From positions 56,482,001 through 56,546,000 of the forward strand of contig OX597825.1 in NCBI GenBank assembly GCA_951406725.2: DNA of 64,000 bases, written 5' to 3'. The DNA is from Octopus vulgaris. Taxonomy: Eukaryota. The translations under genes were made by a program, and so were the position numbers. The notes under the pieces are model-generated. The model was given only the letters and a program-made list of their open reading frames with translations, was not told the DNA's origin and did no database searches. Shown here piece by piece: positions 14,820 through 21,988 of this stretch (within the stretch, counting starts at the first letter, position 1; each line of letters begins with the position of its first letter).

Positions 14820-15951
14820 GGAGCATGGGGTATTTGAGGACATACCTTTTTGGGGGCCACTGCTGCATTTTTTGTAAACTCTGTAAAATCTTTGTTTCAG
14901 AAAATATTAATGGCAGACCCTCAGCTTACTCAAGAAATGAAGAGGCATGCTGTTATTGTGTTTATAAAGGCTGAACATAGCGATTTAAAAATATCTCGAT
15001 TTTTAAAAGTTGCCAGATCTTTCATCTACAAAGTTTGTAAAGAGCTAGATACTGTAGATGGAAACGTGTCACTAGTGTCAACGAATAAAAAGTATTCTAA
15101 AAGGTCTGAAATCATAAGAACGCCTGAATTTATACAGCAAGTTCAACAGATCATTGATTACAATCCCAGAAAGTTCATGAGGTCAATTGCAAAAGATCTC
15201 CATATGTCAGAAGGAACAGTCAGAAATGTTGTGTACGAAGACATCAGATATAAGTCTTATATGATGAGGAGAGGTCAATTTGTTAGAAAAGGCAAAAGAA
15301 AAGCACTACATCAGATCTAAATGGTTCTTAAACAAACTGAAAATCCAGCAGAAGAAGGTTTTATTTGGTTTTTCTCAAACTCTCCTGAAGTTCCAAGTGT
15401 TATGCATACAAAATTTCCAGCAACTGTTATGTTTTTAGGGGTTGCCAGCAATGAAGGACATGTGATGCCTCCTTACTTCTTTCCACAAGGCCTTAGAGTT
15501 AACTCTGCTGCCTACACTGAAGTCCTGAAAATAATTGTTAAGCCCTGGGTATACAGTGTATGCAATGGAAAGCCATGTGTTTCAGTAAGACTCTTGCACT
15601 ATCACACATGGCTCTAGTAACACAGGAATGGATGGTTGAAAATATTCATGATCACATAACCCCTAACATTTGGCTTCCTAATTCCCTAGATTTCAACCCA
15701 TTGGACTACTACATGTGGAGCGCTGTTGAGAAAGAAGTCGATGAACTCACCCAAAACACCAAAGATTCTTTGAAAGCTGGCATACACTGAGTAATGTCCA
15801 AAATGAACTAGGACCACTTCATTCGAGCATGTAGAAAAGAAGGTTTATTTTTATCCTCATAGCATTTTGTGATAAATAAAGTTAGTATATGTCATTACAT
15901 ATCTGTATTTTTATAGACATAAATCTATCCTCATGTACCTTACGCACCCTG
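14817..15951 (+). mobile_element. Tc1/mariner DNA transposon, maT/DD37D-like, decayed
   Basis: Imperfect TIRs cagggagcatggggtatttgagga / tcctcatgtaccttacgcaccctg in a TA context. Split transposase in ORFs 14850-15320, 15321-15617 and 15560-15790, with KFPATVM..GV.SNEGHVMPPYFFPQGLRVN and W.PNS.D.NPLDYY.W motifs. Confidence 0.9.
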
Positions 15952-16025: not shown

Positions 16026-16302
<277 letters not shown>

Positions 16303-16528
16303 TCAATATAGGGTGGCAAAAAAAAAATTTTGTAGAATTCTTTTGCCACCAGCGGCCTAGTAGGAAAAAAATTAAAATAGTCATAGACCATTTTTAAGTT
16401 CAACATCAACAATAAAGGAACGGCCATAATAGGCCATTCACCCACTAGAAATAACAGCCAAAGCTTCAACCGCAAATAAAAGTTAATTCAGTAAACCAGG
16501 AGAAAATTTAAAAAACATTTACCCTGTA

Positions 16529-16635
16529 ATTTCTTATACGATATACCGTTTCATCTGCTGATTAATGGTAAACTAACCTGATTAAATTAAATCAAGCCAA
16601 TCTTCCACAGGCCCTCAGATTCTTCAGTAAGAAAT
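16529..16635 (-). ncRNA. Type I hammerhead ribozyme, copy 1
   Basis: Minus strand: ATTTCTTA (stem I) CTGAAGA (core) ATCTG-[58 nt]-CAGAT (stem II) GAA ACGG-TATA-TCGT (stem III) A / TAAGAAAT (stem I). GUA cleavage triplet; predicted cut between 16537 and 16536. Confidence 0.85.
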
Positions 16636-17022
16636 AGCCCAAGACGGAACAGATATTTTCACGAGGCATTTCCGACGTTGCCAAGTTTATATCTGACCTA
16701 AAATTTTCAAATCGTCGCACTCGCGCCAAATTTATCGGCAGCAAATAAATATAAGCTGTCGATTCCATTACGGAATTAACCAGAAAATTCATAATTAATC
16801 AATATAGGGTGGCAAAAAAAAATTTTGTAGAATTCTGTTGCCACCAGCGGCCTAGTAGGAAAAAATTAAAATAGTCATAGACCATTTTTAAGTTCAACAT
16901 CAACAATAAAGGAACGGCCATAATAGGCCATTCACCCACTAGAAATAACAGCCAAAGCTTCAACCGCAAATAAAAGTTAATTCAGTAAACCAGGAGAAAA
17001 TTTAAAAAACATTTACCCTGTA

Positions 17023-17129
17023 ATTTCTTATACGATATACCGTTTCATCTGCTGATTAATGGTAAACTAACCTGATTAAATTAAATCAAGCCAATCTTCC
17101 ACAGGCCCTCAGATTCTTCAGTAAGAAAT
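17023..17129 (-). ncRNA. Type I hammerhead ribozyme, copy 2
   Basis: Same motif as copy 1. Confidence 0.85.
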
Positions 17130-17514
17130 AGCCCAAGACGGAACAGATATTTTCACGAGGCATTTCCGACGTTGCCAAGTTTATATCTGACCTAAAATTT
17201 TCAAATCGTCGCACTCGCGCCAAATTTATCGGCAGCAAATAAATATAAGCTGTCGATTCCATTACGGAATTAACCAGAAAATTCATAATTAATCAATATA
17301 GGGTGGCAAAAAAAAATTTTGTAGAATTCTTTGCCACCAGCGGCCTAGTAGGAAAAATTAAAATAGTCATAGACCATTTTTAAGTTCAACATCAACAATA
17401 AAGGAACGGCCATAATAGGCCATTCACCCACTAGAAATAACAGCCAAAGCTTCAACCGCAAATAAAAGTTAATTCAGTAAACCAGGAGAAAATTTAAAAA
17501 ACATTTACCCTGTA

Positions 17515-17621
17515 ATTTCTTATACGATATACCGTTTCATCTGCTGATTAATGGTAAACTAACCTGATTAAATTAAATCAAGCCAATCTTCCACAGGCCC
17601 TCAGATTCTTCAGTAAGAAAT
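17515..17621 (-). ncRNA. Type I hammerhead ribozyme, copy 3
   Basis: Same motif as copy 1. Confidence 0.85.
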
Positions 17622-18009
17622 AGCCCAAGACGGAACAGATATTTTCACGAGGCATTTCCGACGTTGCCAAGTTTATATCTGACCTAAAATTTTCAAATCG
17701 TCGCACTCGCGCCAAATTTATCGGCAGCAAATAAATATAAGCTGTCGATTCCATTACGGAATTAACCAGAAAATTCATAATTAATCAATATAGGGTGGCA
17801 AAAAAAAAATTTCGTAGAATTCTTTTGCCACCAGCGGCCTAGTAGGAAAAAATTAAAATAGTCATAGACCATTTTTAAGTTCAACATCAACAATAAAGGA
17901 ACGGCCATAATAGGCCATTCACCCACTAGAAATAACAGCCAAAGCTTCAACCGCAAATAAAAGTTAATTCAGTAAACCAGGAGAAAATTTAAAAAACATT
18001 TACCCTGTA

Positions 18010-18116
18010 ATTTCTTATACGATATACCGTTTCATCTGCTGATTAATGGTAAACTAACCTGATTAAATTAAATCAAGCCAATCTTCCACAGGCCCTCAGA
18101 TTCTTCAGTAAGAAAT
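18010..18116 (-). ncRNA. Type I hammerhead ribozyme, copy 4
   Basis: Same motif as copy 1. Confidence 0.85.
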
Positions 18117-18502
18117 AGCCCAAGACGGAACAGATATTTTCACGAGGCATTTCCGACGTTGCCAAGTTTATATCTGACCTAAAATTTTCAAATCGTCGCA
18201 CTCGCGCCAAATTTATCGGCAGCAAATGAATATAAGCTGTCGATTCCATTACGGAATTAACCAGAAAATTCATAATTAATCAATATAGGGTGGCAAAAAA
18301 AATTTTGTAGAATTCTTTTGCCACCAGCGGCCTAGTAGGAAAAAATTAAAATAGTCATAGACCATTTTTAAGTTCAACATCAACAATAAAGGAACGGCCA
18401 TAATAGGCCATTCACCCACTAGAAATAACAGCCAAAGCTTCAACCGCAAATAAAAGTTAATTCAGTAAACCAGGAGAAAATTTAAAAAACATTTACCCTG
18501 TA

Positions 18503-18609
18503 ATTTCTTATACGATATACCGTTTCATCTGCTGATTAATGGTAAACTAACCTGATTAAATTAAATCAAGCCAATCTTCCACAGGCCCTCAGATTCTTCA
18601 GTAAGAAAT
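18503..18609 (-). ncRNA. Type I hammerhead ribozyme, copy 5
   Basis: Same motif as copy 1. Confidence 0.85.
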
Positions 18610-19006
18610 AGCCCAAGACGGAACAGATATTTTCACGAGGCATTTCCGACGTTGCCAAGTTTATATCTGACCTAAAATTTTCAAATCGTCGCACTCGCGC
18701 CACTCGCGCCAAATTTATCGGCAGCAAATAAATATAAGCTGTCGATTCCATTACGGAATTAACCAGAAAATTCATAATTAATCAATATAGGGTGGCAAAA
18801 AAAAAATTTCGTAGAATTCTTTTGCCACCAGCGGCCTAGTAGGAAAAAATTAAAATAGTCATAGACCATTTTTAAGTTCAACATCAACAATAAAGGAACG
18901 GCCATAATAGGCCATTCACCCACTAGAAATAACAGCCAAAGCTTCAACCGCAAATAAAAGTTAATTCAGTAAACCAGGAGAAAATTTAAAAAACATTTAC
19001 CCTGTA

Positions 19007-19113
19007 ATTTCTTATACGATATACCGTTTCATCTGCTGATTAATGGTAAACTAACCTGATTAAATTAAATCAAGCCAATCTTCCACAGGCCCTCAGATTC
19101 TTCAGTAAGAAAT
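19007..19113 (-). ncRNA. Type I hammerhead ribozyme, copy 6
   Basis: Same motif as copy 1. Confidence 0.85.
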
Positions 19114-19488
19114 AGCCCAAGACGGAACAGATATTTTCACGAGGCATTTCCGACGTTGCCAAGTTTATATCTGACCTAAAATTTTCAAATCGTCGCACTC
19201 GCGCCAAATTTATCGGCAGCAAATAAATATAAGCTGTCGATTCCATTACGGAATTAACCAGAAAATTCATAATTAATCAATATAGGGTGGCAAAAAAAAT
19301 TTTGTAGAATTCTGTTGCCACCAGCGGCCTAGTAGGAAAAAATTAAAATAGTCATAGACCATTTTTAAGTTCAACATCAACAATAAAGGAACGGCGGTTG
19401 AAGCTTTGCGGTTGAAGCTTTGGCTGTTATTTCTAGTGGGTGAATGGCCTATTATGGCCGTTCCTTTATTGTTGATATATATATATAT

Positions 19489-19710
19489 ATATTTTCAACT
19501 GTGTAGGATTATTTGAATCTGGTAACGATTACACACCATCTTGCATTCACTTGTACGAGTAAATTTCACTACACACACACGCACGCATATATATATATAT
19601 ATATATATATATGCGTGCGTGTGTGTGTAGTGAAATTTACTCGTACAAGTGAATGAAAGATGGTGTGTAATCGTTACCAGATTCTAATAATCCTACACAG
19701 TTGAAAATAT
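19489..19710. repeat. 222-bp near-perfect palindrome centred on (AT)n
   Basis: atattttcaactgtgtagg...gcacgc(at)n gcgtgc...cctacacagttgaaaatat; only 2 mismatches seen between the arms. Confidence 0.95.
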
Positions 19711-20182: not shown

Positions 20183-21410
20183 TTAGGTCGACAATTATAA
20201 AATTTACAGTAAGGTAAATTTTAACAGCTGCTCATCTTGCGCCATTATTATATTTTGACAATCTTACTTTTTTGTTAGAAAGCTAACACATCTATTTCTT
20301 TATTCTAACTCATTTTGCGCTTTATAAAGTATTCATAAATCGTTTTTTTTGCTATTTTTGTTTAGAGATGGATAAGTCGGGTATTCGTCCAGTTTTGAAA
20401 TATGAGTTCTTTCTTGAAAATATAGCATCACAGACAGCTCGGAATATTAATGAAGCATTCCATTCTAATGTTATTACACAGCAGACTGTATAAAATTGAT
20501 TTGCAAAATTTCATTCTGGTAACTTTGACCTCAAAAATGAGCAACGCGGTAGACGAGAAACAAAGGTGGATAATGACGAACTGAAAGCCACTGTCGAGTC
20601 AGATCCATCTGAAAGTGCCCGTGAATTATCACTGTTGTTTGGTGTTAGCAAGCAAAGAACATTGACTCACCTAGTTCAAATCGGTAAAGTGAAAACTTTG
20701 GATAAGTGGGTTCCACATGAACTCACTGAAAATCAGAAACAGCAACGTTTGGAAGCCTTCATTATGCTATTTTCTCGTCACAAAAATTAATCATTTTTTA
20801 ATCAAATTGTAGCATTTGTTGAGAAATGGATCCAGTACAACAACCGTAAACGTTCAAAAAGCCAAATTCATCAGAAGAAACTGATAGTGCGTGTTTGGTG
20901 GTCTGGCGCAGGTGTGATCCATTATGATTTCATTAAACCTGGCTCATCAATCACGGCTGAAGTATACTGCAGCCAACTGGACCAAATGATGCAGAAACTT
21001 ACAAAAAATAGCCTAGATTAGTGGACAAATTTTATTGCAAGACAACGCCAGACTACTCCTTGCAAAAATGACATTGTCGAAACAACAGGAGTTGGAGTTG
21101 GAAATTCTCCATCATCCACCATACTTATCTGATCTTGTCCCCACTGACTACCACTTCTTCCAGAATTTGGATAAATTTTTGATTGGAAAAAAATTTGATT
21201 CCGATGATGCTGTAAAACAGGCCTTCCAAGATTTTATTGACTCTAGATTGCCAGGTTGTTACAGTTCTGGGTCGGACGAGCTACCACTGAAATGGCAAAA
21301 GTGTATCGACAATATGGGTACATACTTTGATGCATAAAACTATTCGTTGTATATTTAAAACATTAGCAAACTTCTTTTCTTTTCTACAAATTTCATACAT
21401 AACGACCTAA
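20183..21410 (+). mobile_element. mariner (DD34D, Hsmar1/cecropia-like) transposon, decayed
   Basis: TA-flanked TIRs ttaggtcg... / ...cgacctaa. Transposase from ATG 20368 (MDKSGIR..LKYEF) through LDKWVPHELT, QDNAR and HPPYLSDLVPTDYHFF to KWQKCIDNMGTYFD (21337). Several stops and deletions. Confidence 0.95.
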
Positions 21411-21424
21411 TATTTACTGCCATT

Positions 21425-21988
21425 AAGGCGGCGAGCTGGAAAAAACATTATCACGCCGGGCGAAATGCTTAGCGGTATTTCGTCTGCCGTTACGTTCTGA
21501 GTTCAAATTCCGCCGAGGTCGACTTTGCCTTTCATCCTGTCGGGGTCGATAAATTAAATACCAGTTACGCACTGAGGTCGATGTAATCGACTTAATACCT
21601 TGTTTGTCCCCTCTGTGTTTAGCCCCTTGTGGGTAATAAAGAAATAGGTATTTCGTCTGCCGTTACATTCTGAGTTCAAATTCCGCCGAGGTCGACTTTA
21701 CCTTTCATCCTTTCGGGGTCGATAAATTAAGTACCAGTTATGCACTGGGGTCGATATAATCAACTTAATCCGTCTGTCTGTCTTTGTTTGTCTCCTCTGT
21801 GTTTAGCCCCTTGTGGGTAGTAAAGAAATAGGTATTTCGTCTGTCTTTACGTGTTGGGTTCAAATTCCGCCGAGTTCGACTTTGCCTTTCATCCTTTCGG
21901 GATACCAGTTGCGTACTTGGGTTGATCTTAGTGGCTGGCCCATTCCCCCAAAATTTCGGGCGTTGTGCCAAGAGGAGGAAATATTATT
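21425..21988 (+). mobile_element. SINE family A head-to-tail trimer
   Basis: Full unit 21425-21647, then two 5'-truncated units starting at ggtatttcgtctg (21648 and 21831). Confidence 0.9.

Follow-up and report, generated by a model that had tools for sequence, protein, structure and literature searches.

A non-LTR retrozyme whose type I hammerhead bears a long stem II arm and a predicted pseudoknot between internal loops

Introduction

Helical contacts between stem I and stem II have been described in all three hammerhead types (PMC3088659), and about 40% of the representatives of Perreault et al. 2011 are predicted in that account to use a pseudoknot, which constrains the lengths of their stems (PMC3088659). 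In animal type I motifs, cleavage as a dimer through a palindromic stem III is presented as established in PMC4209133 and PMC7229834, and PMC6155905 likewise supports it. As to retrozymes, the preprint 10.64898/2026.07.22.740005 gives one of nine predicted Xenopus retrozyme dimers as cleaved in vitro.

Here, a window of 64,000 nucleotides (the whole stretch of DNA analysed) was examined around a minus-strand hammerhead pointed out in an initial annotation. A tandem array, an insertion footprint, covarying helices and a conserved palindrome are observed. The joint reading that we propose, and consider probable, is that of a retrozyme whose type I hammerhead has a long stem II arm and a GGCC/GGCU pseudoknot, and which is predicted to cleave as a double hammerhead in multimers.

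Results and discussion

Hammerhead motif

The minus-strand motif at 16520..16635, and just beyond, is by its sequence a type I hammerhead that is predicted to be self-cleaving. The core positions C3 U4 G5 A6 N7 G8 A9, G12 A13 A14, A15.1-U16.1 and H17 are all occupied as required, by CUGAAGA, GAAA and GUA. Stems I, II and III surround this core, with stem I as the open end, as in a type I hammerhead. Folding of the 161-nt region beats that of its shuffles (z -2.4), and the core plus long insert is above chance, with 2782 matches in the 2.8-Gb genome searched and 1 for the reversed control. The predicted features are, in the direction of the minus strand:

16640..16644, minus strand: predicted 5' strand of stem Ib, UCUUG, with CAGGG as partner; weak, and its register differs among subfamilies
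16636..16639, minus strand: GGCU in the stem I internal loop, 5' strand of the covarying pseudoknot (from covariation); beyond the interval of the initial annotation
16628..16635, minus strand: 5' strand of stem I, 8 bp, with both-sided changes in 4/8 pairs
16621..16627, minus strand: catalytic core CUGAAGA (C3-A9)
16616..16620, minus strand: 5' strand of stem II, AUCUG; its first pair, A10.1-U11.1, is non-canonical and varies by subfamily
16610..16613, minus strand: GGCC in the internal loop of stem II, the pseudoknot's 3' strand (from covariation)
16565..16608, minus strand: AU-rich 44-nt hairpin of 19 positions, with one A.A mismatch and the loop UAAUUU
16558..16564, minus strand: internal loop of stem II, 3' strand, in which the first UAA is unchanged in 80/80 aligned rows, an invariance that is partly selected, as the extraction filter demanded CATTAA
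16553..16557, minus strand: 3' strand of stem II, CAGAU
16538..16552, minus strand: GAAA of the core and the 12-nt palindromic stem III, whose predicted partner is the neighbouring copy
16537..16539, minus strand: GUA, with the cut predicted to fall between 16537 and 16536 (from the hammerhead consensus, the covariation of stem I and GUC in other subfamilies)
16529..16536, minus strand: 3' strand of stem I, UAAGAAAU
16521..16528, minus strand: UACAGGGU, the pseudoknot partner proposed in the initial annotation; its GGGU is almost invariant

The layout described earlier, with stem II (AUCUG/CAGAU) around 58 nt, a hairpin, the CCUGUG and UACAGG segments and stem III, is correct in all its letters. 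The 12-bp hairpin reported within the insert was found at 16601-16572 with four G-U pairs, above chance, and is contained in a larger one, 16608-16565, which reaches past those 12 bp and absorbs the GUG of CCUGUG. Stem III, ACGGUAUAUCGU at 16549-16538, forms a duplex that is wholly self-complementary, two G-U pairs included. Across subfamilies the cleavage triplet is GUA or GUC only. Regarding GGGU in 16521..16528, it may belong to stem Ib, make an alternative contact or have another role. The AG/GUAAAU that follows stem I might conceivably act as a splice donor.

The 10.1-11.1 pair is A-U here, a standard pair, yet not the canonical G10.1-C11.1, and it is non-standard in 42 of the 80 homologue rows; such non-standard pairs may lower ribozyme activity. 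Natural hammerheads with exceptions at this position, e.g. U.U, are reported as active in PMC3088659, and a pair other than G-C is therefore a deviation and not an exclusion from hammerheads.

Rfam gave no match across the window at gathering scores and no hammerhead over the unit even at E<=10, which is consistent with the long stem II insert. The expectation that an extended variant of this kind would escape standard searches is thus borne out for Rfam. Three Rfam matches at E 2.7-7.6 were dismissed as chance.

Tandem array and insertion footprint

Six identical ribozymes lie in a tandem array with periods of 504, 493, 495, 492 and 494; the motif is the final one, with the five others upstream of it. 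Two features define the locus:

16300..19395, minus strand: tandem array of ~493-bp non-coding units with six identical hammerheads (repeat analysis)
19405..19476, plus strand: inverted 72-bp arm of the same ~493-bp unit, which stops at the second fixed end and abuts (TA)n

There is no ORF of 100 aa or more within 16300..19395. The array is flanked by (TA)n on both sides, its 3' end entering the microsatellite at about 16299. The 30 loci fetched from the genome represent 14 insertion sites and present the same organisation, with tandem units, inverted arms and two fixed ends ~105 nt apart that enter (TA)n; at least one of the two ends abuts (TA)n at 13 of the 14 sites by a strict motif, and at the 14th by eye. 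Tandem units with an inverted arm, a one-sided tail and a microsatellite target constitute a Penelope-type footprint. Moreover, the units are non-coding, each carries a type I hammerhead, and they are dispersed over many loci. The protein-free ~493-bp repeat is a non-LTR retrozyme, a known class, and its insertion footprint is of Penelope type.

Folded as a circle, the monomer does better than 60/60 shuffles (z -3.7), with 59% of its bases paired. The unit is present in contigs of sequencing runs labelled organisms A, B and C, and contigs from runs presumed to be RNA span it and wrap round, a pattern that tandem DNA would also give; these data are assembled contigs with a guessed RNA label, which carry no strand or cleavage ends. 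Runs X21 and X22 (organism D) showed no unit match, from which absence is not implied.

Several other features were observed around this and related copies. A 222-nt stretch at 19489-19710 of the window, 98% palindromic and centred on (AT)n, adjoins the inverted arm of the array and could be an insertion by-product or an assembly feature. Transposase-like fragments, which we take to resemble Tc1/mariner transposases, lie on either side of the region (14838-15320 and 21017-21337), and a SINE-like repeat of ~180 bp is present in two or three tandem copies on the minus strand at 21520-21950. At another locus (L063:3746-3861 onward) a copy of this family, family A, is broken ~15 nt past the ribozyme and resumes about 2 kb later; the break holds LINE-like RT frames of 247 and 395 aa and looks like a LINE insertion into the unit.

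Candidate mobilising element and a second family

A very young and active Penelope-like element found in the same genome (L090:4250-6478, L204, L205) is a candidate for the mobilising partner of the retrozyme. It has an open frame of 811-869 aa and an upstream frame of ~495 aa, a CxxxxCxxC linker, a GIY-YIG-like C-terminus, the same type of footprint and a 38-nt tail, and 150/150 scored matches were identical (best 150 of 18295 candidates). Pfam identified RVT_1 in this element and found no GIY-YIG family; the endonuclease and the Neptune/Nematis label come from motifs read by eye against the descriptions in PMC8557442. The 38-nt tail, compared with about 105 nt in the retrozyme, speaks against this family as the mobiliser. 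No sequence detectably shared with the ~493-bp unit was found (best E 0.53, one family compared), and a protein search for further Penelope-like families returned only the same family among the best 150 of 18295 candidates.

The RT ORF beside a family copy at L054/L090 was considered as an autonomous partner and rejected, as it belongs to a separate element in whose terminal (TA)n the retrozyme is inserted. Apart from this, the pLTR of the young element carries a minimal hammerhead-like motif, which combines the U3/A8 variant of the core with a palindromic stem III of 6 nt.

A second retrozyme family, family B, was also observed (L031, L032, L036, L039, L055 and L068). Its unit is ~583 bp, with a GUC site and an 8-nt palindromic stem III, and its stem II continues via an internal loop into a long AU-rich hairpin; it shows the (TA)n two-end footprint of family A and cofolds as a double hammerhead. 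The two families present short colinear matches only (E 0.012 and 0.14). At L069:4448-4594 a copy of family B, oppositely oriented, adjoins a family-A array, which fits a common (TA)n target. The long stem II arm therefore occurs in two unrelated-looking families of this genome.

Homologues and covariation

Genome-wide, 1441 family candidates were found, the best 40 of the 1441 being scored at 99-100% identity. Pattern matches by loop-strand class (2782 + 242 + 13) amount to about 3,000 copies in many subfamilies, and long-insert hammerheads other than the window's own core variant gave 1621 matches in a pattern search, versus 51 in the control. For the alignment with MAFFT, 289 matches were extracted from 143 loci, 80 of them distinct; matches without the hairpin motifs (family B and the unrelated L046, L066, L067, L079 and L084) had been dropped before this 80-row set was made.

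The 80 rows share kinship, and covariation counts therefore exceed the number of independent events. With this caveat, pairing stands at 97.5% in stem I, where four of the eight pairs show both-sided changes; stem II has both-sided changes at 4/5 pairs, stem III is 98-100% paired, and the 44-nt hairpin, paired at 93-99%, has one G-C to A-U change along with numerous wobble exchanges. At loci L230-L234, which represent a sub-variant of subfamily A8, two neighbouring stem II pairs have each changed on both sides (AUCUG/CAGAU to AUUCG/CGAAU).

Probable stem I-stem II contact

The GGCC of the stem II internal loop covaries with GGCU just 5' of stem I and is likely to pair with it. This GGCU (16639-16636) sits 4 nt outside the interval first annotated. 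The upstream helix, RRCC/GGYY, is paired 4/4 in 73 of the 80 variants, a count whose register is the best of nine and hence fitted, and in 27/27 hand-picked representatives. It was tallied by anchored counts and not by alignment columns; MAFFT shifts 14 A4b rows by one column at the upstream strand, so the 88.4% paired in the alignment understates the helix.

Before the loop side was searched, the evidence was weak (one both-sided change, in clade A4, and rival helices), and the search was therefore conditioned on the loop only. It returned 2782 matches with RRCC, 242 with the second C changed and 13 with the first C changed (controls 1, 0 and 0). Among the matches listed for the second-C-changed class, 85/100 were subfamily A8, and the six A8 sites fetched have AGCU as the upstream strand, A-U replacing G-C, with the downstream ACAGGGU unaltered. 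Upstream A together with loop U gave 221 matches genome-wide (control 7), and upstream A with loop C gave 11 scattered single matches (control 11). The pseudoknot thus has both-sided changes of C-G to U-A in clade A4 and of G-C to A-U in subfamily A8, which stand on separate starred branches of a tree of the 27 representatives from which the pseudoknot strands were left out. Furthermore, a shorter stem II offset (5 nt and not 7) accompanies a shorter upstream distance (5-7 nt and not 7-8). A Watson-Crick helix of at least four pairs that has compensatory changes and joins the sides of stem I and stem II corresponds to what is called a pseudoknot-stabilised hammerhead; the isolated duplex energy of the upstream helix is -5.8 kcal/mol.

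Some observations weigh against this contact. It has only 4-5 bp and is based on two lineage events, the 221 copies being one event; with one-base shifts permitted, all 15 representatives retain 11 of the 36 candidate 4-bp helices; and the GGUU of clade A4 could also pair with downstream AAUU. There are also counter-examples with loop GGCG opposite an unchanged GGCU, namely three tandem copies at locus L255 and the truncated copy L256, which matches an organism B contig.

Predicted dimeric cleavage and proposed mechanism

The near-palindromic character noted for stem III is above chance and suits dimer cleavage, with 6/6 self-complementary pairs in 75/80 rows. The centre of the palindrome, which is unpairable within one hairpin, occurs as GC or AU, i.e. 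at least one event. Computed without pseudoknots, the probability of the active monomer fold is 0.055 for the window copy, 0.001-0.055 in 7/8 subfamilies and 0.53 in subfamily A6; since ViennaRNA leaves pseudoknots out, these values may underrate the activity of the monomer. Two copies left to cofold freely give a double hammerhead (-81.8 vs 2 x -36.0 kcal/mol). In 7/7 natural tandem pairs the inter-copy stem III has a probability of 0.74-1.0, and cross-copy stem I reaches at least 0.78 in only 4/7. These models suggest that the hammerhead is likely to cut only when two neighbouring copies pair.

According to the proposed mechanism, stem II would run through the internal loop into the 44-nt hairpin, which would be held outside the core, and a pseudoknot of 4-5 bp would align stems I and II side by side, replacing the usual non-Watson-Crick loop contact; both steps come from comparative evidence and folding. 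The palindrome of stem III would find its partner in the next copy, leading to double-hammerhead cleavage in multimeric transcripts. By analogy with known retrozymes, cutting at successive GUA sites would free ~493-nt monomers, which would circularise, and a (TA)n-targeting Penelope-like RT/GIY-YIG enzyme would copy them into two-armed arrays.

A more demanding version of this scheme, which we regard as doubtful, is a ribozyme gated by two copies, in which a lone copy would misfold, a kiss between internal loops together with paired palindromes would switch cleavage on, and the stem II arm would be a dedicated module, e.g. a docking site for the Penelope enzyme. If true, the element would cut multimers and spare monomers and circles. 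Such an architecture was not found in the literature searched.

The structure could also have been kept for RNA stability or for binding of the mobilising protein, around a weak or inactive ribozyme with a sequestered core. In the lowest-energy fold of the monomer the core is indeed paired to stem III, mismatches are frequent at 10.1-11.1, and the hammerheads of Penelope-like elements (PLE) are reported in PMC4209133 with low in vitro activity. However, the core is fully restored when the dimer folds freely, both stem I and stem II covary, the cleavage triplet is limited to GUA/GUC, and a DNA search unconditioned on the core recovered clade-A4 copies with mostly intact cores; we thus judge this explanation unlikely.

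Alternative partners of the stem II loop

Another pairing of the loop strand, as the sole or an alternative state, would be with the downstream GGGU in a shifted register (RCCY/GGGU). This pairing is 4/4 in 27/27 representatives, it is found in 15/15 without any shift, and GGGU is almost invariant; nevertheless, G and U partners accept every transition, and therefore this retention says little. The helix is weak (-2.8 kcal/mol), has zero both-sided changes among the 27 representatives and leaves the association of upstream A with loop U (221 vs 11) unexplained, all of which makes it improbable, whether as a substitute for GGCC/GGCU or as an alternative state.

The weakest proposal, which we hold to be very improbable, is the helix originally named, in which CCUGUG in the insert (16611-16606) would pair with UACAGG 3' of stem I (16528-16523) and accelerate a monomeric ribozyme. 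It is 6/6 complementary in the window copy, where its isolated duplex energy (-6.1 vs -5.8 kcal/mol for the upstream helix) puts it on a par with its rival and therefore makes it possible in this copy, though it is not conserved; CCU/AGG is retained in most rows, and the central pair is A-U in 17 clade-A4 rows vs G-C in 15, a nominal both-sided change. However, it does not hold up in the comparison of homologues that the annotation itself had proposed: it is intact in 14 of the 80 variants, all from the window's own subfamily, and in 2/27 representatives, its central G-C pair is A.C or another mismatch in 48/80 rows, and clade A4 keeps 2-4 of the six pairs. The central purine of CCUGUG pairs instead with U at the hairpin base in 78/80 rows, forming the helix would open stem Ib and the hairpin base, the A8 loop change is answered upstream and not downstream, and when the insert was shuffled 2000 times and compared with the unchanged tail, a match of at least 6 bp arose in 75.2% of cases, i.e. 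at chance level. Hence, a pseudoknot between stems I and II stands as the type of contact, with the covarying GGCC/GGCU as its probable strands in place of CCUGUG/UACAGG.

Comparison with known systems

As in the animal non-LTR retrozymes described in PMC7229834 and 10.64898/2026.07.22.740005, the units of this retrozyme are tandem, non-coding, a few hundred bp long and low in GC (35%), with one type I hammerhead per unit, a palindromic helix III, co-occurring Penelope-like elements and a predicted circle whose folding beats that of shuffles. The canonical motifs have a 4-bp helix II with a short loop, whereas helix II here has a structured insert of 58 nt, and their loop contacts are non-Watson-Crick, whereas the contact predicted here is Watson-Crick. 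The predicted circle is only 59% paired here.

Concerning the pseudoknot-stabilised hammerheads of Perreault et al. 2011 (PMC3088659), a short helix of at least four pairs bridges the stem I and stem II sides in both cases. PMC3088659 describes pseudoknots whose partners are either terminal loops or free tails; in the present motif each strand lies in an internal loop and, unlike those descriptions, one of them precedes a 44-nt hairpin. The filter given in that source rejected 10.1-11.1 mispairs, which are present in many copies here. The PK hammerhead (Zhan et al. 2024, PMC11300833) also has a pseudoknot partner 5' of helix I with an A-rich single strand nearby; in its published account the pseudoknot substitutes for helix II, whereas the present motif keeps an intact helix II and has its contact at the periphery.

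The minimal or dimeric hammerheads of PLE (Cervera & de la Pena 2014, PMC4209133; Lunse et al. 2017 via PMC6765202) are likewise type I with a palindromic helix III, and share with this motif dimer cleavage, which is predicted here, and a helix II longer than canonical, 7-8 bp in theirs (PMC4209133). As characterised in PMC4209133 and PMC6765202, their helix III is minimal or absent and they show no tertiary contact that has been recognised; the motif studied here, unlike those of PMC4209133, combines a palindrome of 12 nt with a covarying pseudoknot and an insert that is far longer. Regarding insertion, the partial tandems, the inverted 5'-truncated arm, the tail at a single end and the (TA)n targets are those described for Penelope-like elements (Craig et al. 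2021, PMC8557442; Frangieh et al. 2024, PMC11167929), from which this element differs in having no ORF and a tail of about 105 nt vs the 30-40 given in these sources.

In the literature searched, whose scope stopped short of the PMC7229834 supplement and Lunse et al. 2017, no type I hammerhead combining a long stem II arm with an internal-loop-to-internal-loop helix was found. Hammerheads with a 58-nt stem II insert can be present in thousands of copies and still escape Rfam, and animal ribozyme censuses are therefore likely to be incomplete. Moreover, the subfamilies are natural compensatory mutants, so that the tertiary contact and the dimer requirement are directly testable with existing sequences. 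Each ingredient, i.e. retrozymes, pseudoknot contacts and palindromic dimers, has a precedent, and the combination is useful and not startling: the class is already known, and what is new is a structural variant in which a long stem II arm is combined with an internal-loop helix.
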